This document shows positions 3,311 through 62,745 of a stretch of 64,000 nt of DNA, piece by piece. How positions within the stretch are numbered: the stretch's first letter is position 1; each line of letters opens with the position of its first letter. The position numbers and the translations under genes are program-made. The DNA is from Candidatus Parcubacteria bacterium (lineage in GTDB: Bacteria; Patescibacteriota; Minisyncoccia; Phycocordibacterales; Zambryskibacteraceae): NCBI GenBank assembly GCA_019661865.1, contig JAIFWJ010000001.1, positions 110,809-174,808 on the forward strand, in the 5' to 3' direction. The notes beneath the pieces were generated by a model. It had not been told where the DNA came from, did no database searches, and saw only the letters and a program-made list of their open reading frames with translations.

Positions 3311-4282
3311 CTAGTTTTGGACTTGAGTAGTTGTTGATATAGAACTACTCTGGATAGTTTCTAGGGCAGCTTTCACAAGCTTCTGTACATCTTGGAAGCG
3401 AGCTTCATCGGTAGAACCTAAAACTGATATAACGATTGGCCGGCCTATTTCTGGATCGAAGGCAATTACTAGGTTACCTCCAGCCAGATCTGTAGAACCA
3501 GTCTTCGAGGCCCGAAGACCTGGGATCTCATTTACTATCACATCAGTATTCTTAGCCGTATGGACTGTATGGTCTAGCGTAGGAGTGGTGATATAAGGCA
3601 GTCTTGTAGCCTCGAACAAATCAGGGTGAGTCCTAAGCACATATGCAAAGAGTACTGACATGTCTCTGGCTGTGCCGTAAGCTCCGCTGCGATGGAAAGA
3701 TTCGTCGAGCCCAGTTTCGTTAAAATAATATGTGTTATCAAGGTTTAACTCCTCGGCTTTCTTATTCATAAGCCTAATGAATTCCTGGCGGGCTGCTTCG
3801 GGCTCCGAGGTAGGATTATCGAGAGATCCCAGAGTCAATGCTACAGCTCTCATGCCGTCGTTTGAAGAAGATGTAAGTGAGAAGTCGAGTAAGTCCTTAA
3901 GTGTCCATCTTTCCCCCACGTGGAGACCTGAGTCTCCGTCAGCAAGTATTGCATCTTGGGTTATGGTCACAGTGGTCCCACTTGGGGCCAAGTCACGCGC
4001 CACCAGTGCTGTCATCACCTTAGTGATAGAGGCAAGTGGTAGTCTCTCGTTTTCTTCCTTAGCGAAGAGAGTGTTACCAGTACGCACATCATATACATAG
4101 GCTGCCTTGGCCTCTAGGGTTATGTGATCGAAGGCGGAGACCACTTGAGTGGGCACAGACACTGCTTGACGCTTAACTCTGTGGCTCAGGACGAAGGATA
4201 GTGCCAAGAGTCCGATAAGGATCACACCTAAGACGCCAAAAAACTTAACCTCACCTTCGCTTGTCAGAAATGGATTATTCAT
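3311..4282 (-). CDS. D-alanyl-D-alanine carboxypeptidase (S11 penicillin-binding protein, DacA-like)
   Basis: N-terminal TM anchor, then SxxK (SITKVMT), SxN (SSSND) and KTG (SKTGST) motifs. Confidence 0.8.
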   Translation of the reverse strand: MNNPFLTSEGEVKFFGVLGVILIGLLALSFVLSHRVKRQAVSVPTQVVSAFDHITLEAKAAYVYDVRTGNTLFAKEENERLPLASITKVMTALVARDLAPSGTTVTITQDAILADGDSGLHVGERWTLKDLLDFSLTSSSNDGMRAVALTLGSLDNPTSEPEAARQEFIRLMNKKAEELNLDNTYYFNETGLDESFHRSGAYGTARDMSVLFAYVLRTHPDLFEATRLPYITTPTLDHTVHTAKNTDVIVNEIPGLRASKTGSTDLAGGNLVIAFDPEIGRPIVISVLGSTDEARFQDVQKLVKAALETIQSSSISTTTQVQN

Positions 4283-4829: not shown

Positions 4830-5582
4830 TTATGCGTAATTAGGAATACCTACAGTTTCTGTTTCCATTTCAATATTCTTGCCTTCTTGAGTGACTTTTA
4901 TGGCTCCGCGCTTCACCAACTCTAGCATGGCAAGGAAGCCCACAATAACTGCCACTTTCTTTTCCTGTGTAAGCTTACCTGTAGCACCCAGGTGCTTAGA
5001 TGCAAAGTCATTGAAGCTCATCTTTATTCCGCGTGCAATTCTTTCTGAAAGTTTCTCTATAGTTTCTTCTAGAGTTATCATTTTCCTCACTATTGCTTTA
5101 GGAAGTACTTCTTTCTTTGGCAAGGCTTCTATGAGTGCAAGTAAAGCTTCGGAAAGATCTGATACAGTTGTTTTCTTATCTGGAGAGAAAACAATAACTT
5201 CTTTCTTGGATGGCAACTTTTCGAAAATGATTTGTTTGCCGAATATCTTTCGTATTTCTTGTGAAAGTTCTTTTACTCGAGCATAGATCTTAAGTCGATG
5301 TTCAAGGTCCTCGATACTCCCCTCTTCTTCATCTGTAAGTTCGAGATTCGGAAGTAATGAACGGGACTTCAAGAGCATGAGAGTTGAAGCCACTACGATA
5401 AACTCTGCGCTCTCACTTATGGGAAACTCTTCGTGACTCTCGAGGTACGCTATGAAGTCATCTGTCACTTGGGAGAGTGAGACGTCTGAGACGAAGAGCT
5501 TCCTTTTCTCTATAAGGTCAAGAAGAAGGTCCAGAGGACCTTCGAAGACAGCCGTTTTGACCGAGTATTTAAACGCCTCCAT
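4830..5582 (-). CDS. scpA: segregation and condensation protein A
   Basis: 250 aa. Kleisin ScpA-like N-terminus (FEGPLDLLLDLIEKRKL). Confidence 0.8.
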   Translation of the reverse strand: MEAFKYSVKTAVFEGPLDLLLDLIEKRKLFVSDVSLSQVTDDFIAYLESHEEFPISESAEFIVVASTLMLLKSRSLLPNLELTDEEEGSIEDLEHRLKIYARVKELSQEIRKIFGKQIIFEKLPSKKEVIVFSPDKKTTVSDLSEALLALIEALPKKEVLPKAIVRKMITLEETIEKLSERIARGIKMSFNDFASKHLGATGKLTQEKKVAVIVGFLAMLELVKRGAIKVTQEGKNIEMETETVGIPNYA

Positions 5583-5639
5583 TTCTTAAACCTTATCATT
5601 TCTAGCCCCCAATTCCAATAAATGGTTACAACAAAAACC

Positions 5640-5668
5640 GCCCCTTGCGGAGCGATTTTTGTCAGGCC
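5640..5668 (-). terminator. rho-independent terminator after slt-domain gene
   Basis: On the minus strand: CCGC-AAGGG-GCGG hairpin followed by TTTTTGTTG. Confidence 0.5.
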
Positions 5669-5677
5669 AGTCATCCG

Positions 5678-6481
5678 TTAGGATCCTGCCTGTCTGAAGA
5701 GAGTTGCAGTGGCTACGACCTTGTACGGGTAGCCAGCAGAGTCGTCATGAAGACGTTTGGTGAACTTCTCTACAGATGCATCAGAGAGCAGTTTGTGAAT
5801 AGTCACATTGTGTGATTCCACATATGCTCTAAGTGTAGCTGAGTCGGAGACACCAGGAAGTGTGATTCCGTCATTTGCCTTGGCGTAAATCTGAAGCGCC
5901 TTTGTAACGTTACCCTCACCGGCATGGTATGCCCATGTGGCAAGACCCCAGTCGCCGAAGCGTTCGTAGTTCTCGGCAAGGTATGTAATACCGGCCGTGA
6001 TACTTTTCTCTGGGTCCTTGCGATCATCCTGCTTTTTATTCACAGTTAGACCAAGGTTACGAGCAGTACCTGGCATGAGCTGGTAGACACCAAGTGCTCC
6101 TGCACTAGACTTGGCCGTCTCAGATCCACCATTCTCGAGGAAAGCCACACCTATGGCCACGTCTTCTGGTACACCCTTCTTGGCAGCGACAGCCTTAATG
6201 GTATCGGCATGACGCTCGATCACATCTAGAGAAGCTGCATATGCTGGACGAGTACTCACGAAGTCCATTTGCTTGCCTATGATTGCGTCGCTCACATCTA
6301 CTGAGACATTACCGAAGAATGAGTCGACTATGGCTACTTCTGCCTTAACTACAGAGTTTGTAACATCTGTAAGAGGAGTAGTAACGGGACTTACAGGTAG
6401 TGCTGGGGCGAGTAGAGAGGTGCCCAGTATGGTACCGGACACAATGAGCTTAAAAGCTGCATTAATTTTTGTTGCTAACAT
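5678..6481 (-). CDS. secreted lytic transglycosylase (SLT domain)
   Basis: Signal-peptide-like N-terminus. SLT catalytic region ...GALGVYQLMPGTA.... Confidence 0.75.
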   Translation of the reverse strand: MLATKINAAFKLIVSGTILGTSLLAPALPVSPVTTPLTDVTNSVVKAEVAIVDSFFGNVSVDVSDAIIGKQMDFVSTRPAYAASLDVIERHADTIKAVAAKKGVPEDVAIGVAFLENGGSETAKSSAGALGVYQLMPGTARNLGLTVNKKQDDRKDPEKSITAGITYLAENYERFGDWGLATWAYHAGEGNVTKALQIYAKANDGITLPGVSDSATLRAYVESHNVTIHKLLSDASVEKFTKRLHDDSAGYPYKVVATATLFRQAGS

Positions 6482-6501
6482 AATTTTGGATTAGGACACT
6501 A

Positions 6502-6547
6502 ACGAATGTGCGAACTTCTTACGAACTTGGCCTGGTCGCACATTCGT
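6502..6547. repeat. perfect 12-bp inverted repeat (ACGAATGTGCGA / TCGCACATTCGT) with 22-nt loop, upstream of slt
   Basis: Read directly from the sequence. Loop contains a cgaactt direct repeat. Lies in the 5' region of the slt-domain gene. Confidence 0.6.
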
Positions 6548-6759
6548 CTAAATCCCCAATCTAAGCTCACGAGAAAGTTTGGGCGCAAAAAAACCGCGTT
6601 TCCGTGGTATCTCGTCTACGGTGCCCCTTTCAGTGGCTCTCTATTCAGTTGTACACCACATATTATAGGCTTGGCTTAACCTTGACGTCAACCATATGAC
6701 TTTGTCTAGTTGAGGCTTAAAATAACGATTTATTTCATCAGTACGAAATATATGAGAAA

Positions 6760-6781
6760 GGCCCCAACTTGCGTTGGGGCC
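6760..6781 (-). terminator. rho-independent terminator of the high-GC lipoprotein gene
   Basis: GGCCCCAAC-TTGC-GTTGGGGCC: 9-bp GC stem with 4-nt loop. On the minus strand it is followed by TTTCTCATATATTT. Confidence 0.6.
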
Positions 6782-6805
6782 ATAGTCAAACCTGTACTGT
6801 ACAGC

Positions 6806-7633
6806 CTACTGAACCAGCGTCGCCCAGCCGTTCTTCACCTCGAGGTGAGGCTTAGTGCGACGTGTGAGAGACGTGGAACGGAGGATCTCTGCGCCCAGGG
6901 CCGATTTGGCCGCGGTGACGCTCTCGTAGACGGCGCAATGGACGATCATCCGCCCAGTTTTCATGTCATGGTGGACGATCTCCCTGCGTGTATTGTTGGG
7001 AGTGCTGATGTTGAGGACTACACCCAGGCCAGCGGTGCTAGCGAAGGTCAGACTGTCGGTGCGCGAGCAGCCGAGCTCGTAGAGCTCCACAGGGAAGACG
7101 AAACGCTGGGTCAAGTCTTCGACATGGATCTCCTCGGTGACACTGACACTTCCTGTACGGACCCGACGTTCATGGGAACGCAATGGAAGCATTGTGCCTG
7201 ACCGGTTATCCATACCCCCGTCGCTGAACATAACCCTGGCAGTGTCGTAGGACATTACACCACGGTGATGCTGCGGATCCATCGGCTGCCAGTCAGAGAG
7301 AAACGAGATACTCGTCCTTTCCTGGCTGGTTGGGTAGATCCACCTCGCGCCGTTGACGCCCATGCCGATCGTGGCCCTGGGTCCGTCTTGCTCGAGTATC
7401 GTGGAAAACTTGTTCTCTCCTGTGGATACCCAGTGAAGACCGAAGGATACTTCCTCGAGGTTGAGACTCGACACAACACCGAAGAACGGCATCGTGTTCG
7501 GATCGGCGGACGAGTCCATCGAGATCGAAATGATCGAGACGGAGTTCGGGGCGATCGCGCGAGGAGACGTTGCACCGTCGCTGCACGCGGCCATTAAGGC
7601 TACGAGGCAAAGACCGAGAACGGATCGAGACAT
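6806..7633 (-). CDS. lipoprotein of unknown function (compositionally foreign, likely horizontally acquired)
   Basis: Lipobox MSRSVLGLCLVALMAAC. GC content visibly much higher than flanking DNA. The many overlapping ORFs on both strands in 7255..7650 are typical high-GC artifacts. AGGAG SD 6 nt before the ATG. Confidence 0.65.
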   Translation of the reverse strand: MSRSVLGLCLVALMAACSDGATSPRAIAPNSVSIISISMDSSADPNTMPFFGVVSSLNLEEVSFGLHWVSTGENKFSTILEQDGPRATIGMGVNGARWIYPTSQERTSISFLSDWQPMDPQHHRGVMSYDTARVMFSDGGMDNRSGTMLPLRSHERRVRTGSVSVTEEIHVEDLTQRFVFPVELYELGCSRTDSLTFASTAGLGVVLNISTPNNTRREIVHHDMKTGRMIVHCAVYESVTAAKSALGAEILRSTSLTRRTKPHLEVKNGWATLVQ

Positions 7634-7678
7634 TGAAGCTCCTGTATAGTTGGTTTGACTTAATGAACTTCTGTAGTC

Positions 7679-7707
7679 AGTATAGCACTTATAGCCTATC
7701 TTGTCAA
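7679..7707 (-). promoter_or_regulatory. sigma70-type promoter for the lipoprotein gene (TTGACA-17-TATACT)
   Basis: Minus strand -35 TTGACA (7702..7707) and -10 TATACT (7679..7684) with 17-nt spacer. Overlaps the last codons of the upstream carboxypeptidase gene. Confidence 0.55.
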
Positions 7708-8562
7708 GCTTGTCTGATCAGTTAGGCTTGCCTGTGCAACCAGGGGGAAACTATGGCTTAGAACATAGTCAATTAACTGTTTTTCATCGTGTATTCTGTC
7801 TTCTGATCCTAGGGCTATGAAGACCACCGGGTGGATTCCATCTACGCTTGGGAGGCCTAACACTGTGAGTATTGTCTGGCGAGCTGCAGTTGTTTGTCCA
7901 TTCTTCCCACCTACAAAGTATGGGTTATCTATAAAGTTATTGAAGTCATGCAGGTCGAGCCAAGTTCCCTGCCCTCCCTTACCTGCTGTAATCTTAAATA
8001 TTTCTGGATGCTTTTCATAAATATATTTAGCAAGTGTGTAGAGATCTTCAGCGGTAGAGATGTTGTCCTGGGATATACCAGAAGGGTCGGCATAGCGTGT
8101 ACTATTCATCCCGAGTGAAAGTGCTTTTAGATACATTAGTTTTAAAAAATTTGTCCAACCGACAGAGTGAGTAAATATATTCGCAGCTTCATTCGAGGAT
8201 TCCATAAGCAGTGGATACAAGAGATTCCTGTATCTTACATCGTCACCTATCTTAAAGCGTGTCTTAGAAGTACTTACAAGATCGTCAGGATATACCACTG
8301 TTATGTCATCTAGGTTCACATTCTCGAGTGCTATCACTGCTGTCATGAGTTTCGTTATTGAAGCGATGGGAACTCTCTTAGTATCATCTTTATTCAAGTA
8401 CATTTCTCCAGTCTTTAGATCCTTAACCAGATATACGGGTGCAGAAAATGTGGAAGAGGTACTTAACTCAGCTTTTAACGGATATTTCGTAGCATGGAGA
8501 AATACACTATATAAGATTGTGAGGGCTATTATTGCGACTATGGCTCCAGTTACTTTACGCAT
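7696..8562 (-). CDS. D-alanyl-D-alanine carboxypeptidase paralog (S11 family)
   Basis: SxxK (SITKLMT) and SxN (SSNEA). The third motif reads KNG (GGKNGQT) instead of KTG. N-terminal TM. Confidence 0.7.
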   Translation of the reverse strand: MRKVTGAIVAIIALTILYSVFLHATKYPLKAELSTSSTFSAPVYLVKDLKTGEMYLNKDDTKRVPIASITKLMTAVIALENVNLDDITVVYPDDLVSTSKTRFKIGDDVRYRNLLYPLLMESSNEAANIFTHSVGWTNFLKLMYLKALSLGMNSTRYADPSGISQDNISTAEDLYTLAKYIYEKHPEIFKITAGKGGQGTWLDLHDFNNFIDNPYFVGGKNGQTTAARQTILTVLGLPSVDGIHPVVFIALGSEDRIHDEKQLIDYVLSHSFPLVAQASLTDQTSLTR

Positions 8563-9857
8563 TATGGGTTCAAACGTTTAACGTCTCGAGGTAGGTATGT
8601 GGCTTCGCGGACATTGGGTAGGTCAAGGATCTTCATAATAAAGCGTCCAGGACCTATGCCTGCACCACCGTGTGGAGGGCAGCCGAAGCGGAAGAAGTTT
8701 AGGTAATCCTTGAGAGGTTCAAGGTCCATACCTTTCTCAAGGGCTTGGCTCTCTAGTATCTCTGGTCTGTGCTCACGCTTTGCGAGAGTTGTCACTTCCA
8801 CTCCGCGGAATATAAGGTCTGCACGTTGGGATCTGTCTGGATCTTCCTTTGTGCGCATATGGTAGAAGGCAGACTTGGACTTATGATAATCAGTTATAAA
8901 TACAAAGTCGTGATTATATTTCTCTTTTACATATTCAGAGATTGCTCGTTCTTCTTCGGGAGATAAATCATGCTCTTCTCCTGACTCGATCCCTCTCTCC
9001 CTCAAGATTTTCTTGGCTTCTACAATCTTCACCCGCGGGAATGGCTGAGTAGGTAGAGTGATATCAAGATCAGGGAAGGCAGCAAGTAGAGACTTGAATC
9101 CAGAAATGATCATCCCTTCTTCCATATCCATAACATCATGATGACTCTCTACGTAAGCCATTTCGAAATCCCAACCAGTAAACTCAGTCAGGTGTCTTGT
9201 AGTAAAGGAAGGTTCAGCGCGGAAAACCGGGCTCACCATAAAAACTCTTTCAAAGCCGGATGCAATACCCATCTGCTTGTAGAACTGTGGTGATTGAGCC
9301 AAGTACGCCTTACGGTCGAAATAGTCCACCGAGAAGACCTCTGCACCAGTCTCTGAAGGAGTGGACATAAATGCAGGTGGGTAAAGCTGTATGAAGCCGT
9401 TTTCATCCCAGAATTTTCTCCACCCTTTCTCGAACTCTGTCCAGACCTTGAAGATGCGAGCCTTCTCAGGTTTACGAAGGTCAAGCCATCGGTAGTCGAA
9501 GCGTAGTGGTGCCTCTGTCTCCTCTCCACCCTTCTTAGTAAACACTGGTATAGGAAGTTCGGGTGCTGCTTCAGAGATGATCTCGAGATTACTTACTTGT
9601 ATCTCTACTCCGCCGGGAGCATTCTTCTCTTCCTTCACCTGACCGGTCACTGAGACTACTGACTCGAGATGAATCTCTTTAGCCTTATCGAACATGCCAC
9701 TTTCGGGTAAGATCACAGTTTGTATAACGCCATGTATATCACGAAGGATTAAGAATATAACCTTGGACTGGATTCGGAGTGCATATACGAAGCCGCGGAC
9801 AGTTACCTCCTTGCCGGCGCACTCACAAACTTCCTTAGTATTAAAAGTTTTTTTCAT
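8562..9857 (-). CDS. aspS: aspartyl-tRNA synthetase, archaeal/eukaryotic type (likely non-discriminating)
   Basis: 431 aa class II aaRS. C-terminus GCPPHGGAGIGPGRFIMKILDLPNVREATYLPRDVKRLNP matches type-2 AspRS tails. FRAEP motif 2 region. Confidence 0.85.
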   Translation of the reverse strand: MKKTFNTKEVCECAGKEVTVRGFVYALRIQSKVIFLILRDIHGVIQTVILPESGMFDKAKEIHLESVVSVTGQVKEEKNAPGGVEIQVSNLEIISEAAPELPIPVFTKKGGEETEAPLRFDYRWLDLRKPEKARIFKVWTEFEKGWRKFWDENGFIQLYPPAFMSTPSETGAEVFSVDYFDRKAYLAQSPQFYKQMGIASGFERVFMVSPVFRAEPSFTTRHLTEFTGWDFEMAYVESHHDVMDMEEGMIISGFKSLLAAFPDLDITLPTQPFPRVKIVEAKKILRERGIESGEEHDLSPEEERAISEYVKEKYNHDFVFITDYHKSKSAFYHMRTKEDPDRSQRADLIFRGVEVTTLAKREHRPEILESQALEKGMDLEPLKDYLNFFRFGCPPHGGAGIGPGRFIMKILDLPNVREATYLPRDVKRLNP

Positions 9858-11436: not shown

Positions 11437-13020
11437 CTAGCTTAATGCTAGTTCTAAGTAGAAAGTTGAGCCTTTTCCCTTCCCTTCTGACTCTGCCCAA
11501 ACCTTACCATTATGTGCTTCTATAACTGCCTTTACGAAAGAGAGCCCGTATCCAGTGCTATTCACATTAACCTTGAGAGAGTCTTTACCTCTTCCACCTT
11601 TAGTAAAGAGTCTTGGTTCATCCTCTGGATCTATACCTACTCCAGTATCTTTGATTGTGAGGAGTGCCTTACCATTATGCTTGTTTAAACTCACCTCCAC
11701 TCTTCCTTCTGGTGTATACGCTATGGAGTTTTCGACCAAGTTCCGCACAACTTCTTTAAGTTGCAGTTTATCTCCTCTAAGCTTGTATCCATCGTCCTCA
11801 GCATTAAATTTAAATTCTAGTCCTTTACTCTTAGCATTCTCACTTTGTGTCTTAATCACATCTTCAACTACGTTTCTAAAGTCTATATCTTCGAAGTTAT
11901 AAATCAGTATGCCACTCTCTGCACTCGATCCCTGAAGTACCTGTCGAACGAAGTCCACACCCTCTGTGAGAGACTTGAGACCTTCCTCAAGCATGGGCTT
12001 AGCTTCAGATTGAACAGCACCATAATCACCACTGAGAAGCTCGCTGAAGATACCTTTAGACTTTGAAAGGTACCCTTTAATCTGATGATTCATTATATGT
12101 ATAAGATTCGTCTGTCCCTCATTAGCAATTTGCAACTGTTCAGTCTGTTGTCTTTCATGAATAAGAGATCTAATTAGTTCAATACTTCCAATAAGAATTA
12201 CAATAAATGCTGTTATGTTTACTGCAACGGCACTAGTAGATTTCGAAAAGATAATATTTGCAAAACTAAAGGTAGTAACAAGAAAAGCGATGAATGTAGC
12301 CGCAGCAAGTTTTAGGTTAAACAGCTTATATTTATAGATAGAATAAGAGGTCAAACCGATAAATGGTAATAAGAATAAAGCTGCAAAAGGTATAAATCCG
12401 GTGTTATTAAATGTAACTGGTAAAACGACATTAAATAAAATAATTAAACACGCAGTTAAAAACATACCAAGGAATACAAATATTGCCTGTTTCTTTAAAA
12501 CACCTACTGCTCTGCTTGCCTTAATAGATAACATGGTTACAGCTGCAAAAAGAAGACCGAAGGCCACTATTCCAAATAAAGCAATTCCCGGTCCCCTTTC
12601 TGGGTTAGTGACCTGGCCGATAGGAGCAACATACATAACGCTGGGGAATACTAATGGGCTTAAAGTTAAAAGTGCAACCAAAATTACAGTTGGAACGATT
12701 ATATATCTATACCATCGTGGAAATTCTAAGTCCTGTTTAGGAAAAACATATGCCAGTTGAAAAAAAAGCAGAGCATGTAAAGAGGAAATAAAAAGATGAA
12801 GTCTTAAGGACCAAAGAATAAGATCGGGCGCGCGAAATTGATATTCAAAATAATTTGAAATACCCCAGATTGCAGTTAGTAATGAAAAAGCGAAAAAGGT
12901 TCTAGTTGTAATACTTTTCCTATCATTTAGGTAGACAATAACTCCTAGTAGGGCAATTGCCGCTGTTGCTATACCAACAGTTAAAAGATCAAAATTTATT
13001 AAAGTTGGATCTAAATTCAT
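11437..13020 (-). CDS. sensor histidine kinase with multi-TM N-terminal sensor domain
   Basis: About 9 hydrophobic helices in the N-terminal 300 aa. DHp His region (IHIMNHQIKGYL). HATPase_c N/G boxes (VVRNLVENSIAYT, DTGVGI, GYGLSFVKAVIEAHNGKVWAES). AT-rich. 4-nt overlap with the upstream nitroreductase gene. Confidence 0.8.
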   Translation of the reverse strand: MNLDPTLINFDLLTVGIATAAIALLGVIVYLNDRKSITTRTFFAFSLLTAIWGISNYFEYQFRAPDLILWSLRLHLFISSLHALLFFQLAYVFPKQDLEFPRWYRYIIVPTVILVALLTLSPLVFPSVMYVAPIGQVTNPERGPGIALFGIVAFGLLFAAVTMLSIKASRAVGVLKKQAIFVFLGMFLTACLIILFNVVLPVTFNNTGFIPFAALFLLPFIGLTSYSIYKYKLFNLKLAAATFIAFLVTTFSFANIIFSKSTSAVAVNITAFIVILIGSIELIRSLIHERQQTEQLQIANEGQTNLIHIMNHQIKGYLSKSKGIFSELLSGDYGAVQSEAKPMLEEGLKSLTEGVDFVRQVLQGSSAESGILIYNFEDIDFRNVVEDVIKTQSENAKSKGLEFKFNAEDDGYKLRGDKLQLKEVVRNLVENSIAYTPEGRVEVSLNKHNGKALLTIKDTGVGIDPEDEPRLFTKGGRGKDSLKVNVNSTGYGLSFVKAVIEAHNGKVWAESEGKGKGSTFYLELALS

Positions 13021-14087
13021 TTAATTTCTGCTACTTCGTTTACATTAAACCTGCTCGAATGGGCGGAGGGAGAATCGGCATGTCCAACCCTGAACATAAA
13101 GGTGATAATTTCCTCGGGCTTAATTTTAAATGCCCTACCTATATTTTCATATGCTTCCTCAATCATTGCAATCTGCTTTGAAGAAAACTTCTCAGTATTT
13201 CCTGCTCTGATTTGATACATAAAAAACAATACTCCAGTTAAAGGCTGCAGACTTAATCCAAGTTTGGTTGAAGTAAGCCATAGTCTTTCTAAAATTCGAC
13301 CAACATTAACGAAGGTTTCTGGTGAGGTACTCTTTATTGTCAAACAACCAAAGGCTCCTGTCTTTGAATTTATCTCACCATTTTGTCTACCTACAGTTTT
13401 GTAGAAACCTATCTTATTTAGAACATTTATTACTGGCCAACTTTTAATTATTTTAAAAAAAATCTTTGCAGGAGAAGGAAGTTCTAAAGTCTCAATGTAA
13501 AATCCAATTTTTTTTCTAGCATCTTCTTCTTTTGTCCAATTTAAGTGGGTAAAAAAGAAATTATGTAAATGCTTATTACTGAACATTACTCTTTCATTTG
13601 TACTCCCAGCATGACCCAAAGTTTTCTTATTATTACTATCTATCGTCATATAAAAACCTATATCCTTGTTATTAAAAATGCCTTTTAGAATATCAATTTC
13701 ATGAGAACTCAGAGGGTCGGTTTTATAAGGTTTTCTATTAGTTGATCTCATACTAATATATTGAAAAAGAGAGTCTTTTTGTGGTGAGGCTGGAGTAAGT
13801 TTAATATGTGCTACATGATTTTTGTTTGTATCAGGAAAAGTATTAACTTCAGGGTTAAATCCAAAATGTTTAGCGGCTATAGTGATATTTTCAATTGCTG
13901 CTCCATTAGCCATATATGAGGCGCACTGTTCCCAGTTGTACAATGATCTGTCTCTATCAGGTAAGTTATATACATCAATCTCATTATCAGACACAATAAA
14001 TCTCCAAGGCTGGGCGTTCTCTCCAGATGGTGCTTTTGTTCCAGCCTCAATTATTTTTTTTATATTCTCATCCATTTTATAATCCAA
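13017..14087 (-). CDS. nitroreductase-family protein with two nitroreductase-like halves (SagB/McbC- or Acg-like FMN oxidoreductase)
   Basis: N-terminal APSGENAQPWRF nitroreductase signature. 356 aa, about twice the single-domain size. AT-rich codon usage. Confidence 0.65.
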   Translation of the reverse strand: MDYKMDENIKKIIEAGTKAPSGENAQPWRFIVSDNEIDVYNLPDRDRSLYNWEQCASYMANGAAIENITIAAKHFGFNPEVNTFPDTNKNHVAHIKLTPASPQKDSLFQYISMRSTNRKPYKTDPLSSHEIDILKGIFNNKDIGFYMTIDSNNKKTLGHAGSTNERVMFSNKHLHNFFFTHLNWTKEEDARKKIGFYIETLELPSPAKIFFKIIKSWPVINVLNKIGFYKTVGRQNGEINSKTGAFGCLTIKSTSPETFVNVGRILERLWLTSTKLGLSLQPLTGVLFFMYQIRAGNTEKFSSKQIAMIEEAYENIGRAFKIKPEEIITFMFRVGHADSPSAHSSRFNVNEVAEIK

Positions 14088-15258
14088 ACATTTTTCTAAA
14101 ATTTTCTGTAATTTCTGCTCTTCTAGAAACTTGATCTGAGTTGTGGTATGTAGGATCGAGCATGCTATCCATATTTACAAGAGATCTGTTCGATTCCAGT
14201 GGCTGATTATTTAGTACTTTTCTTACTCCATACGCTACAGCGGCTCCATTGAGTAGGGCTGCACCTCCTAATTGTGGCCAAGAGACGATTGTTTTTCCCG
14301 TCTCAAGTAAAGAGCCTTGCATTCTTTCAGTAACGTTCTCAGGGCCAACTAGTTGTGTGATAGTCTTTCCAATACCAAATTTGTCCAGATTTTTAAACAT
14401 TTCTAAAGTCACTTCTCCCAATCGGCCATGAAAGAAAGGTGTGTTTGGATCTATGTCATATCTTTCAATATCTACCACTCCATTATCACCATTATCAGCA
14501 GCTTGAAGCAGAGCGATTCCATGCTTTTTACATTGTTCGCGAATTAAATATTTTATTGGAAAGCTATCTAACTCATCGATCATAATGTCCAGACCGTCAA
14601 AAAACTTATCAATGTTATTTTCTTGAAGACCCTCTGGAAAAGTTTCAACTTCAGCATAAGGGTTTATTTGGTAAATTAACCTAGATGCCATATCAACCTT
14701 AAGAATTCCTAAATTTTCAGCTCCAGAAAGTATTCTATTAGTATTGGACAAGGCTAATTTATCCATATCAGCTAGCTTCATCCTTTTTGGCCCGCCCTGA
14801 AGTACTAGAGCGTAAGCAATGTTTGAGCCAACACTTAATCCGCCAATGCCAACTGTTGCGTTATAAAAATTCTTTTGTTCCTCTAAGTTTATGAGATTTC
14901 TATTGCGATTTGTTCGAACAAGCCAAAAGTCTTCTTCCGGGAGGATGTGAACCAGTGTGGAGTTCCAAGGGAAATAAACCCATTTGCCATGTTGCCAAGG
15001 AGGAGCTTCTTTTTTTAAACTTTCGAAGTATTTACTGAATTCCTCTTTATATGTGAGAGTATAAACTTGAGATGGGTTTTTAACTCCAAAAAGCTCAAGA
15101 TGTTGTTCCTCAAAATCATCAGATACATGTTGGATTCGCTTTTCAGATAACAATTTTTCAACCTTGTTCTGATCTGATTTATGTGAAAGATCAAAAATTA
15201 TAGGTTTCGAAATAACCTTATCATTTGAAATCGACTCTAGGGCTTTTTCTAAGCTCAT
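14077..15258 (-). CDS. E1-like ThiF/MoeB/MccB-family adenylyltransferase with ~110-aa N-terminal extension
   Basis: RTNRNRNLINLEEQKNFYNATVGIGGLSVGSNIA matches ThiF-family R..R...G.E.Q...VxGxGGxGS nucleotide-binding motif. 393 aa. 11-nt overlap with the downstream nitroreductase gene. Confidence 0.65.
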   Translation of the reverse strand: MSLEKALESISNDKVISKPIIFDLSHKSDQNKVEKLLSEKRIQHVSDDFEEQHLELFGVKNPSQVYTLTYKEEFSKYFESLKKEAPPWQHGKWVYFPWNSTLVHILPEEDFWLVRTNRNRNLINLEEQKNFYNATVGIGGLSVGSNIAYALVLQGGPKRMKLADMDKLALSNTNRILSGAENLGILKVDMASRLIYQINPYAEVETFPEGLQENNIDKFFDGLDIMIDELDSFPIKYLIREQCKKHGIALLQAADNGDNGVVDIERYDIDPNTPFFHGRLGEVTLEMFKNLDKFGIGKTITQLVGPENVTERMQGSLLETGKTIVSWPQLGGAALLNGAAVAYGVRKVLNNQPLESNRSLVNMDSMLDPTYHNSDQVSRRAEITENFRKMFGL

Positions 15259-15312
15259 TTAAGTATTAAAAGTATAGCAAGGTGATGTTGTATAACAATG
15301 GAGATCTATCTA

Positions 15313-15340
15313 TTGACAATATGCAAATTTGGTGTATTAT
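15313..15340 (+). promoter_or_regulatory. near-consensus sigma70 promoter (TTGACA-16-TATTAT) driving the plus-strand gene at 15376
   Basis: TTGACA at 15313..15318 and TATTAT at 15335..15340. GAGGA SD before the ATG at 15376. Confidence 0.55.
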
Positions 15341-15375
15341 TATGTAAGTAACTGACCTTTCAATCGTGAGGAAAT

Positions 15376-15837
15376 ATGCTCAGAATCAATGCGATCTTCG
15401 TCTGCCCGACATTAGCGCTTCGCAATGCCTTGATAAAGGTTATCAGCGAAACTGGGGGTCCAACGCCTGTGCTAAGGAGCGACACTGTCTCGGCACAACG
15501 GGCACACTATCTACCAGTGGAATCTAGTACCATAATCAATCACCCAGAACCAATGATGGTCTCGGCTCTGGGCCAGCACTGTGCGTGTATTGCAATAGAG
15601 ACCGCTGATCGCTGGGCGGCAGCCGAAAAGGCTGCGGCCATTTTCAGATCAGAAGGTATTGAGGCTAGTGCACGTCATGATATTCAACCTGAATTCCCGA
15701 AAGGATTGCTGAGCTTCGTGGTGGTACCAGCACTCGAGGGAATTACACTGATGTACTGGCCCCGGCCAGAAGATCTAACACCGGATGTCATCGCGGCATT
15801 ACCGAGTCGTATTCCTTGGGAACGGCCTAGCGCTTAA
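15376..15837 (+). CDS. hypothetical protein (GC-richer gene embedded in AT-rich island)
   Basis: 153-aa ORF with strong promoter and SD. Composition differs from surrounding AT-rich genes. No recognisable motif. Confidence 0.5.
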   Translation: MLRINAIFVCPTLALRNALIKVISETGGPTPVLRSDTVSAQRAHYLPVESSTIINHPEPMMVSALGQHCACIAIETADRWAAAEKAAAIFRSEGIEASARHDIQPEFPKGLLSFVVVPALEGITLMYWPRPEDLTPDVIAALPSRIPWERPSA

Positions 15838-17336
15838 TTGCGCTGGGCTGTTTTGTTTCTTACCCACTTCTGTTTAGTGCCGGGTTTAAAGTAAGTGGGA
15901 TGTTCATATGGCCAAAAGACTATTTGGGGGGTGATGCGATCTTTAATTGTTGCTGATAGATAATGATATTCTGTACTCTTCTCCATTAATGCATCAAACA
16001 CTGCGCTTGTGACAAGTTTTTTGATATTCGGATCCTGCTCAACTCCAGGTCTTAATTCTATATTTAGCTCTAAATACTCGTTCTGTTCATTGTTGTGTTC
16101 AGTAAATAGAGTAAATTTACCAGTTATGTAATCCTCTAAAACAGGATGCTCTAGTCCAGCCTTAACATATTCAGGATAAATTATTGCACCATATAACTTA
16201 GTGGAAAGATCAGTTCTCTCGTAGATATACACAAATGGAAGTTCAGTTATGGTTTTTCTTATACCGGCTTTCTGAATTTCTTTCTCGAGATCGTAACCAT
16301 TTTGCTTAAAAATTGCCTTTATATCATCGAATGTATGTACTCCACCATTGTCCCCTATCTCATATCTGACAAGAGGTAATGCGCTCATCCCACTGACTAG
16401 AATTTTTTTGTTCTGTGATTCAAAGTTTGTAAAATCAGGGTTAAATTGAGCCAGAGTTGGAAGTCGGGTCGCATCTATGAAGAGATCTTTGTAAAGTTTT
16501 TTATTTTTAAGTGCAATCCTTCTAATTAAAATAGATAGTGGGGTCTCTTCTGCCATAGTTCCCAAATCTGCGCTACCGTATATATTCATTGTATCCCTAT
16601 AAATATTTTTGATGCCAGTCTTCTTGGCTATGTAATCTCGAAATTTCTCGGAGAAAGCTTCCGCAGCAAACACAACTTTTAAATCAAAATCTTTCCAATT
16701 GACTTCATTATTTTTTCCTTCGTCTATTACATCTTTGAGAAATGGTGGGTAACCACAAAGAATGACTTGATCAAATTTTGGAGCAATATTTCTCATTGCT
16801 TCAAAAATTTCTTTTTTATTTACACCTGGAGTAAGGATAGAGAATGGATAGCCAGCATCAGATAGATATCTAAATGCCTGATATGTGATAACTCCACCAA
16901 TCCAAACACCCATTCCGAAGCCAACAATTACTAATGTAGATTTATCTTTTTTAAGCCCGCTCGATTTAATAAATAATTCATGTAAGACTGCAGATTGAAA
17001 ATCCACGTCCTTGCTTCTTGGGAAATAGAACGGTGCACCAGTAGATCCAGAGGTGCTTGTAAAAACCATTGGTTGAGACAGTGTACCTTTGAGACAAAGA
17101 TCCTGAAGCTGGTTTCCTTTTAAATATTCAGATCGAGTAACAGAAGGAAGGTTTTTGAAATCATCAAAATTTCTGATCTTTTTTGGATCAATTCCTTTTT
17201 TGGTCAGAAAATCTTTATAGGCGGGCACCTGCTTGGAACACAGGTTGAAGAGCTCAAGTAGTTTTTTTTCGCTCTCTTTTTTCCAATAATTGCTTTTCTT
17301 ACTTTTTATCGAATTTATTACCTTTCCAGAGTTCAT
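15834..17336 (-). CDS. adenylate-forming enzyme of the PaaK / coenzyme F390 synthetase / CapK family
   Basis: TSTSGSTGAPFYFPRS P-loop-like motif typical of PaaK-type ANL enzymes. YGSADLGTMAEE (YGxTE-like). 500 aa. AT-rich. Confidence 0.6.
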   Translation of the reverse strand: MNSGKVINSIKSKKSNYWKKESEKKLLELFNLCSKQVPAYKDFLTKKGIDPKKIRNFDDFKNLPSVTRSEYLKGNQLQDLCLKGTLSQPMVFTSTSGSTGAPFYFPRSKDVDFQSAVLHELFIKSSGLKKDKSTLVIVGFGMGVWIGGVITYQAFRYLSDAGYPFSILTPGVNKKEIFEAMRNIAPKFDQVILCGYPPFLKDVIDEGKNNEVNWKDFDLKVVFAAEAFSEKFRDYIAKKTGIKNIYRDTMNIYGSADLGTMAEETPLSILIRRIALKNKKLYKDLFIDATRLPTLAQFNPDFTNFESQNKKILVSGMSALPLVRYEIGDNGGVHTFDDIKAIFKQNGYDLEKEIQKAGIRKTITELPFVYIYERTDLSTKLYGAIIYPEYVKAGLEHPVLEDYITGKFTLFTEHNNEQNEYLELNIELRPGVEQDPNIKKLVTSAVFDALMEKSTEYHYLSATIKDRITPQIVFWPYEHPTYFKPGTKQKWVRNKTAQRN

Positions 17337-62390: not shown

Positions 62391-62408
62391 ACAAATAGAA
62401 ATAAAGAG

Positions 62409-62440
62409 AAAGCGCCCAACCGAAGTTGAGCGCTTATTTA
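62409..62440 (+). terminator. hairpin terminator after fmt (AGCGC…GCGCT, inner CAAC-CGAA-GTTG)
   Basis: Compound hairpin followed by the T-rich TATTTATGG. Confidence 0.45.
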
Positions 62441-62745
62441 TGGATACAGTGACCGAAGTCACGGAAAGAACTTCTTCAGCCGGACAGAGCCCGCTTGGGA
62501 TGTCCGGCCGCGCCTTTTAAGTCGCTTCCAAGACCGGCGAACCAAGGAAGTCTATCCTCCTTTATATTGCTGTCACCGAATGCTAGGCGGAGGCCTCTTT
62601 ATACCATTGCAATCGGGCCGATTTAACAGATACGGGCCCGTACCTGTTAGAGCGGAAAACGGCATTTCAAACAAACCACTCTATGTATATTATACACCCC
62701 CATCTGCTTTTGTCAAGCAGAGATTGATATTAAAGCTTAGGCTGG
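62441..62745. other. GC-rich, highly structured convergent intergenic region: candidate unassigned ncRNA
   Basis: Multiple strong hairpins, including GTGAC-CGAA-GTCAC, GCCGGACA…TGTCCGGC with inner CCC-GCTT-GGG, a 24-nt palindrome AACAGATACGGGCCCGTACCTGTT, and TCTGCTT…AGCAGA. No credible ORF. Lies between the 3' ends of fmt (+) and a small minus-strand gene. Confidence 0.35.

Follow-up and report, generated by a model that had tools for sequence, protein, structure and literature searches.

A GC-rich lipoprotein gene of an undescribed Parcubacteria family in the variable AspRS-ScpA interval

An open reading frame (ORF) of ~830 bp at positions 6806..7633 (minus strand) of a 64,000-nucleotide stretch of Candidatus Parcubacteria DNA (assembly GCA_019661865.1, contig JAIFWJ010000001.1, positions 110,809 to 174,808; the whole stretch is referred to here as the window) starts with ATG and encodes a 275-residue prolipoprotein whose family, not previously described, is known to date from Parcubacteria alone. 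We regard it as probable that this is a functional lipoprotein gene, organised as its own transcription unit, that was acquired horizontally from a GC-richer member of the same clade. The locus is most likely a tidy example of gene exchange and not a new kind of system, and the lipoprotein family one that has so far gone undescribed. Its only unusual aspects are the reuse of the same chromosomal slot and the persistent GC-richness of the gene.

A sequence-only reading of the window had singled out the ORF as strikingly GC-rich, and the measured composition bears this out. The ORF has a GC content of 0.581, whereas the window averages 0.438 (standard deviation 0.030 in 828-nt windows); the corresponding z-score of 4.7 is the maximum of the whole 64 kb and refutes uniform GC across the locus. 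The first, second and third codon positions have GC contents of 0.54, 0.49 and 0.71, respectively, and the third-position value (GC3, 0.714) is 4.4 standard deviations above that of the 68 other ORFs (0.430±0.065), making the gene the sole strong high-GC3 outlier among the 69 non-overlapping ORFs of the window. The GC step matches the bounds of the coding sequence (CDS; ~6790-7620), the promoter and the DNA beyond the terminator being AT-rich. Spurious ORFs overlapping the CDS in other frames, to which the same reading had referred, are also present (three of 105-110 and one of 163 residues).

At third positions both C/(C+T), at 0.70, and G/(G+A), at 0.74, are raised in the lipoprotein gene, compared with 0.42-0.53 and 0.37-0.54, respectively, in the ribosomal-protein genes, rpoA, infA and dnaK of the window, whose GC3 is ordinary (0.40-0.53). 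As these native genes show no shift towards C- and G-ending codons, codon bias driven by expression was ruled out. Relative synonymous codon usage in the lipoprotein gene is anti-correlated with that of its own genome (r=-0.24), while the correlation reaches 0.65 and 0.61 with the genes of two GC-richer relatives (loci L081 and L091, respectively; L and P numbers are our labels) and 0.82 with other members of the family. The lipoprotein gene is compositionally foreign to its genome.

The protein opens with the signal peptide MSRSVLGLCLVALMAA (codons 1-16), which together with the lipobox Cys17 codon (7585..7583) occupies 7583..7633 on the minus strand. In MSRSVLGLCLVALMAA-C a short n-region, MSR(+)S, carrying R3, is followed by the hydrophobic core VLGLCLVALMA and the lipobox L-M-A-A-C17. 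The lipobox, already recognised in the sequence-only reading, proved valid, and Cys17 is kept in at least 90% of family members. Met at -3 lies outside the narrow [LVI][ASTVI][GAS]-C consensus, a residue that is unusual but permitted by the PROSITE PS51257 pattern. The lipoboxes of most homologs are canonical (LLAAC, LVSAC, IIAC or LAGC), and the homologs align from Met1, with MR or MK starts. Both the sequence and the family alignment establish these signal features, from which we infer that the 275-residue protein is lipidated at Cys17. The public record of the protein, KW790_00750 (hypothetical protein, Candidatus Parcubacteria metagenome-assembled genome), lists only 262 residues and begins at Met14, 13 codons downstream of Met1 (7594-7633, minus strand); this start has no Shine-Dalgarno (SD) sequence and drops the signal peptide. 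The deposited start therefore appears to be 13 codons short, hiding the export signal, and Met1 is favoured because the SD, the family alignment and signal-peptide logic agree.

The signals for expression are equally recognisable. The -35 hexamer TTGACA (7702..7707, minus strand) is separated by a 17-nt spacer from the -10 hexamer TATACT (7684..7679), which is extended by an upstream TG (TGcTATACT, 7679..7687, minus strand), giving a match of 11/12 to the promoter consensus and a predicted transcript start near 7672. Sites of this quality occur six times in the 64 kb, against 1.5 expected, and two of the six flank the lipoprotein gene. The -35 element lies within the final codons of the upstream gene, which encodes an S11 D,D-carboxypeptidase (..TTG ACA AGA TAG, stop codon at 7698..7696), an overlap that the sequence-only reading had described correctly along with the promoter itself, the SD and the terminator. 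The SD, AGGAG (7639..7643, minus strand), ends 5 nt before the ATG, and an ACAGGAG or ACAGGAA motif precedes the start codon in several other family members too. Downstream, an intrinsic terminator (6750..6781, minus strand) consists of a 9-bp GC-rich stem with a 4-nt loop and a T-rich tail: the hairpin GGCCCCAAC-GCAA-GTTGGGGCC at 6781..6760 is followed by TTTCTCATAT. Its folding energy is -24.7 kcal/mol (z=-4.3), and 0 of 200 shuffled sequences were as stable. Promoter-like, SD-like and hairpin elements resembling those of the window were recognised by eye, upstream or downstream, in the family members inspected, and an Rfam search of the unit returned no regulatory RNA, the only match being a sub-threshold one on the terminator hairpin. 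The lipoprotein gene is thus predicted to be an independent transcription unit, with an active promoter and terminator.

Neither the 275-residue protein nor any of the 17 aligned family members has a match in Pfam, NCBIfam, PHROGs or PADLOC. No PDB sequence matched the protein, the best profile match (E=0.16) covering the signal peptide alone; a word-indexed search of 5.8 billion proteins returned only the lipoprotein's own record, and the JGI metagenomes contained no close relative. An exhaustive phmmer search of 1.84 billion representatives, however, found 16 further proteins (E 4e-16 to 3e-5) of 243-279 residues, which align end to end at 20-30% identity; the window copy shares 24-30% identity with its best homologs. 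Since nearly all 16 homologs share lipoboxes and two co-conserved cysteines, they constitute a small, undescribed family. In the family alignment (A1) D114, W115 and G202 are invariant, and at least 90% of members keep C17, C189 and C233. The invariant Asp114-Trp115 pair, part of an SDW motif, is encoded at 7289..7294 (minus strand), while the span from Cys189 (7069..7067) to Cys233 (6937..6935) covers 6935..7069 (minus strand). The sole member without one of these two cysteines (P0015) lacks both, and this joint loss suggests that C189 and C233 form a disulfide. With the family alignment as input, AlphaFold2 (AF2) returned a model with a pLDDT of 81.7 and a pTM of 0.79 that is mainly antiparallel β with a C-terminal helix, compared with a pLDDT of 30 from the single sequence. 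The ratio of nonsynonymous to synonymous substitution (dN/dS) is 0.18 in the closest family pair, L081 and L083, indicating purifying selection. These data establish that the ORF is coding and that its product is a family member, and the ORF is judged to be a genuine lipoprotein-type gene of an unnamed family.

The gene lies in a variable slot (5583..8561) between the gene for an archaeal-type aspartyl-tRNA synthetase (AspRS; 8562..9857, minus strand), the conserved upstream anchor, and that for ScpA (4830..5582, minus strand), the conserved downstream anchor. Besides the lipoprotein gene, the slot holds the upstream S11 carboxypeptidase gene (7696..8562, minus strand) and a gene for an SLT lytic transglycosylase (5678..6481, minus strand). 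A survey of the slot covered 45 related species-level genomes whose AspRS is 69-77% identical to that of the window. Across these loci the order TrpRS-AspRS-(cargo)-ScpA-ScpB-S11-MraY is kept, TrpRS being the tryptophanyl-tRNA synthetase, and the gap between AspRS and ScpA ranges from 0 to 3.7 kb, with AspRS abutting ScpA in many. The cargo, annotated by eye, is unrelated from relative to relative: nothing, HAD-like proteins, ABC transporters, GNAT with a 152-residue lipoprotein (L008), and others. These comparisons demonstrate that the slot is variable. A hidden Markov model of the family found no member in the slot, or within ~10 kb of AspRS, in any of the 45 genomes; the comparison of orthologous loci proposed in the sequence-only reading therefore returned absence of the gene from the same slot in every related genome surveyed.

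The slot of L001 contains an SLT gene, the product of which is a 63%-identical ortholog of the window SLT, together with a 146-residue lipoprotein (12437-12877). This protein and the 152-residue lipoprotein of L008 (12550-13008), both encoded directly upstream of ScpA in the two closest relatives, are 29% identical to each other (E 2e-8), and the L008 gene is also GC-rich (GC3 0.80 in a 54% GC locus). Homology of these short lipoproteins to the 275-residue family was considered and rejected, as only the signal peptides align. The slot of L031 (11530-14961) contains a 296-residue gene of 63% GC (GC3 0.81) in a 48% GC locus, along with two ORFs resembling a reverse transcriptase split in two and a toxin-antitoxin-like pair, the latter features recognised by eye only.

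Every homolog with a placeable host belongs to Zambryskibacteria-like Parcubacteria, although several short contigs could not be placed taxonomically. L081 is from a Parcubacteria group bacterium, and L091 encodes a RecG that shares 70-75% identity with proteins assigned by name to Parcubacteria or Zambryskibacteria. The same architecture is present in at least 10 independent assemblies (NCBI, JGI, ENA and Logan), in which two chromosomal positions recur. Five members, including that of the window, directly follow AspRS in a TrpRS-AspRS backbone (the others being L081, P0002, P0009/L088 and L083), and five lie between RecG and tRNA-Ile(UAU) (L084, L089, L090, L091 and L093); a further member, L095, follows a Mur-ligase-like gene identified by eye from its C-terminus. 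RecG is absent from the 64-kb window. The tRNA-Ile gene beside the second slot, with anticodon UAU, was located at L084 938-1012, L089 5556-5630, L091 7278-7352 and L093 2510-2584; bacteria seldom read AUA by way of this tRNA. A short GCTAT(T) motif also occurs right after the upstream stop codon in three AspRS-linked loci, as TAA-GCTATTTTAGCTATTGACA in L081 (9899-9925), TAG-GCTATTGACA in L083 (690-720) and TAG-GCTAT in the window (7691-7698); it is duplicated in L081 but too short to count as a target site.

The evidence for exchange comes from the members that follow AspRS. The lipoproteins of L081 and L083 are 78% identical (dS 0.66), even though the L081 host has an archaeal-type AspRS, 77% identical to that of the window, and flanks of 51% GC, while in the L083 host, whose flanks have 38% GC, AspRS is of the bacterial type and lacks GAD (28% identity over 86 residues). 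Conversely, hosts with the same AspRS type, the window and L081 or L083 and L088, carry lipoproteins that are only 23-24% identical. The DNA homology between L081 and L083 begins at the promoter, immediately past the AspRS stop codon, breaks over the 5' untranslated region and signal peptide, and resumes from the lipobox Cys to the stop codon. As 78%-identical proteins cross AspRS types and divergent ones share a type, the gene tree conflicts with the backbone, which demonstrates horizontal exchange into the same slot for this family. The two forms of AspRS are themselves of note: the bacterial type without GAD (467 residues; L083 1-696, L088 1-148 and the P0009 contig) stands at the same position of the TrpRS-AspRS backbone as the archaeal type (~431 residues), a difference that resembles in-place replacement of an essential gene.

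The composition of the gene is a property of the whole family. All 11 members for which DNA is available have 57-65% GC and a GC3 of 0.71-0.86, in host flanks of 38-57% GC. In the GC-richer hosts (51-57% GC; L081, L085, L091 and L093) the GC3 of the gene is within or just above the native range, so that the strong anomaly is confined to low-GC hosts. Import from a GC-richer relative is the simplest reading of the window gene, and agrees with a published survey (PMC12455944), according to which other Patescibacteria were the source of most transfers detected in Patescibacteria. The gene would have entered the 44%-GC genome by transfer from a clade member of ~51-57% GC, in which its composition would be near-native, to become an accessory gene of the variable AspRS-ScpA slot. 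The family would have been exchanged repeatedly between lineages, landing after AspRS or between RecG and tRNA-Ile(UAU); natural transformation with one-sided homology is our guess at the route. Transcription from a near-consensus sigma-70 promoter with an extended -10, translation from the SD, and the intrinsic terminator would yield a ~26-kDa, mainly β, extracytoplasmic protein, which the Sec/signal peptidase II signal would direct to Sec export and lipid anchoring through Cys17 at the external membrane surface, with one stabilising disulfide.

The recent horizontal acquisition proposed in the sequence-only reading is thus upheld as an acquisition, through the composition of the gene, its absence from the slot in 45 relatives and exchange within the family. 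Recency is undatable, because there is no close homolog and because amelioration is missing family-wide, which may reflect turnover or selection. The donor appears not to be an outside lineage, since all homologs with placeable hosts are from Zambryskibacteria-like Parcubacteria. A donor from another phylum found no support, as the 1.84 billion representatives yielded no homolog in an identifiable non-Parcubacteria context, several short contigs being taxonomically unplaceable. An origin in a phage, plasmid or defence system was rejected, there being no matches in IMG/VR, INPHARED, PLSDB, PHROGs, PADLOC or BFVD; the IMG/VR contigs were searched with four family members as queries, and no phage genes flank any member inspected.

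A number of observations weigh against acquisition from a GC-richer relative as an independent lipoprotein unit. No close homolog of the window copy was found, so that neither a donor nor a date can be named, and the size and range of the family rest on one single-sequence phmmer search, from which AT-shifted, ameliorated members could escape. Amelioration is not seen in any of the six low-GC hosts' copies (mean GC3 0.76, compared with 0.79 in high-GC hosts), which is not what is expected of simple one-off transfers; this could stem from brief residence, from selection for composition or from a bias of detection that misses ameliorated members. That five genomes have a member in the same slot may also reflect long-standing residence, and L083 is a 1.5-kb Logan contig for which a chimeric join is formally possible. 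The position of the -35 element inside a neighbouring gene of native composition fits poorly with a cleanly inserted promoter-bearing cassette, and the unit therefore does not look like a clean own-promoter cassette at that junction. The flanks contain only short repeats at chance level and nothing att-like, and there is no integrase or other mobility gene among the neighbours. With respect to lipoprotein maturation, a Pfam scan of 25 of the 69 window ORFs found neither Lgt nor LspA. Foldseek searches of PDB and BFVD with the AF2 model gave only weak, generic β-sandwich matches, with TM scores of 0.32 or below (none above 0.33 in BFVD).

Vertical descent provides an alternative view of these data, in which the gene is an ancestral resident of a TrpRS-AspRS-x-ScpA arrangement, lost in most lineages and fast-diverging, its high GC being maintained either by biased gene conversion or by selection acting, for instance, on the stability or structure of the mRNA. 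The recurrence of two slots, each in five assemblies, is consistent with such residence, as are the GC-richness of 11/11 members across hosts of 38-57% GC and the lack of amelioration noted above; the RecG-slot pair L090 and L091, moreover, diverges in step, with RecG 70% and the lipoprotein 45% identical. We nevertheless consider vertical residence unlikely. L081 and L083 carry 78%-identical lipoproteins despite non-orthologous AspRS types and flanks 13 GC points apart, whereas hosts of the same type carry lipoproteins of 23-24% identity. At 23% protein identity synonymous sites are saturated, and only strong selection could have retained the GC3. Such selection is without precedent here, and native genes that are highly expressed show no such bias; the near-native composition of the gene in 51-57% GC hosts suggests a simple source. 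An assembly artefact, in which a fragment of a GC-richer organism was mis-joined into the contig, might be suspected from the abrupt GC step in a metagenome-assembled genome, but is extremely improbable. The step coincides exactly with a CDS bearing host-like AT-rich regulatory flanks, the -35 element overlaps the end of the native upstream gene, and the architecture recurs in the independent assemblies described above.

The immediate neighbours suggest another role, in which the lipoprotein would regulate, activate or inhibit the adjacent S11 or SLT protein in the manner of LpoA/LpoB or MliC/PliC, forming a peptidoglycan-remodelling module. The gene does lie directly between the S11 peptidase and SLT genes, the L001 slot pairs SLT with a different lipoprotein of 146 residues, and the gene upstream of the L095 member reads by eye, from its C-terminus, as Mur-ligase-like. 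Such a partnership is improbable, however, as homologs in L081, P0002 and P0009 have no penicillin-binding protein (PBP) or SLT neighbour and the RecG-slot members adjoin RecG and a tRNA. The three slot genes of the window have separate compositions and histories (S11 and SLT of native GC, the lipoprotein gene foreign), with the two downstream genes each under its own promoter; there is no sequence or fold likeness to known PBP activators or lysozyme or lytic transglycosylase inhibitors, and the family was not seen to co-occur with orthologs of PBPb or SLT from one genome to the next. The cell-wall neighbours are incidental to the lipoprotein, and the insertion into a cell-wall-remodelling neighbourhood suggested by the sequence-only reading gives way to a general variable slot between AspRS and ScpA. 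A moron-like or defence gene, left by or exchanged via a phage or mobile element and acting, for instance, as a superinfection-exclusion lipoprotein, would likewise consist of one gene that carries a promoter and terminator and differs in composition from the DNA around it, which is reportedly how Hendrix and colleagues characterised the classic moron. The patchy distribution, the hot-spot location, the tRNA gene beside one recurrent slot, and the reverse-transcriptase-like and toxin-antitoxin-like ORFs seen by eye in the L031 slot would fit. This origin is nonetheless distinctly improbable, given that PHROGs, PADLOC, BFVD (above a TM score of 0.33), INPHARED, PLSDB and IMG/VR contain no matches and that no phage genes lie beside any inspected member.

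As in bacterial lipoproteins processed by Lgt and LspA (PROSITE PS51257 type), a charged n-region and hydrophobic core in the window protein precede a family-conserved lipobox Cys17, although Met replaces Leu, Val or Ile at -3 and the mature domain matches no named lipoprotein family in Pfam, NCBIfam or the PDB. Phage morons and single-gene islets share with the window gene its single-gene organisation with promoter and terminator, its odd composition and its presence or absence among close relatives; in contrast, the context here is chromosomal and housekeeping, without prophage or phage homologs, and the -35 element is shared with the upstream gene. The window gene is, in addition, GC-richer than its host, whereas mobile DNA is said by Rocha and Danchin (2002) to be usually AT-richer. 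The Vsp and Vlp proteins of mycoplasmas are also lipid-anchored surface proteins of extreme divergence (here 20-30% identity) in small-genome, probably host-dependent bacteria; unlike them, the window gene is single-copy, with no tandem repeats or phase switch, and diversity arises between genomes by exchange and not within a genome. The AspRS-ScpA interval, with its 0-3.7 kb of cargo, and the second slot at tRNA-Ile(UAU) resemble recombination hot spots or integration slots, but neither an integrase nor att repeats nor attC-like sites turned up, and the same family returns even where the upstream anchor is non-orthologous. Finally, the mainly antiparallel β model recalls β-sandwich binding modules (CBM4, PA14 adhesin domains, the leukocidin rim or cap and phage tail-fibre tips), the top Foldseek matches being to leukocidins, CBM4, PA14 domains and tail fibres. 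Rapid divergence and exchange are compatible with a module for binding or adhesion, exposed at the surface and fast-evolving because it is turned towards partner cells or phages, a role that we put forward only tentatively.

The two peptidase genes named in the sequence-only reading as S11 neighbours of the lipoprotein gene match Peptidase_S11 (E 1e-26 and 3e-32), and its placing of the SLT gene was also correct. The first S11 protein (3311..4282) carries KTG, while the second has KNG in its place and is encoded by a gene of native composition (GC3 0.37). The two proteins are 26% identical, so the genes are old paralogs and not the outcome of a recent duplication. The second S11 protein (7696-8562, minus strand) keeps SITK and SSN, and its start codon, at 8562, overlaps the AspRS stop, so that it looks translationally coupled; no close relative of this carboxypeptidase was found in the JGI metagenomes. 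The SLT gene, also of native composition, has its own 11/12 promoter, TTGACG-18-TATAAT (6691..6662), followed by a ~175-nt leader. Within this region (6482-6691, minus strand) the leader folds with -55 kcal/mol (z=-3.5) and contains a perfect 12-bp hairpin (6502-6513/6536-6547). Parts of the leader are conserved upstream of the L001 SLT ortholog and it has no Rfam match; it may be a regulatory leader.

Elsewhere in the window, a low-GC stretch (11437-17336; 33-37% GC, GC3 0.25-0.30) between the DnaJ and NUDIX/TrpRS genes encodes a seven-transmembrane histidine kinase, a nitroreductase-family protein, a ThiF-family protein and a 500-residue protein without a Pfam match. The pairing of ThiF with nitroreductase recalls, by eye, peptide-modification clusters. 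Within the same stretch lies a 153-residue ORF of 52% GC (15376-15837, plus strand) behind an 11/12 promoter. The sole perfect 12/12 promoter of the window, TTGACA-16-TATAAT (62716..62689, minus strand), precedes ~270 nt without an annotated ORF; the region 62400-62716 (minus strand) comprises a GC-rich part that looks structured, followed by AAAGGAGG, a very small basic ORF with a TTG start and a hairpin terminator, and has no Rfam match.

Parcubacteria are uncultured, ultra-small and probably partner-dependent, and surface proteins are therefore the likeliest mediators of attachment and phage contact. With a confidently predicted structure for which no structural relative was detected, this unnamed lipoprotein family is a concrete candidate for studies of host specificity. 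We think it rather unlikely that Parcubacteria possess in this family a dedicated surface-lipoprotein module that circulates horizontally, revisits the same slots (directly 3' of AspRS of either type and beside tRNA-Ile(UAU)) and has its GC-rich CDS actively maintained. If they did, this would imply an unrecognised mechanism of targeting or replacement, and the nucleotide composition of one individual gene would have to be under selection, perhaps through mRNA stability, expression or evasion of AT-directed nucleases, in organisms thought to depend on surface contact with a partner. The GC anomaly should not be taken as a sign of a donor from another phylum, and the swapping of this family between lineages at fixed slots offers a modest natural experiment on gene movement among bacteria without obvious mobile elements.

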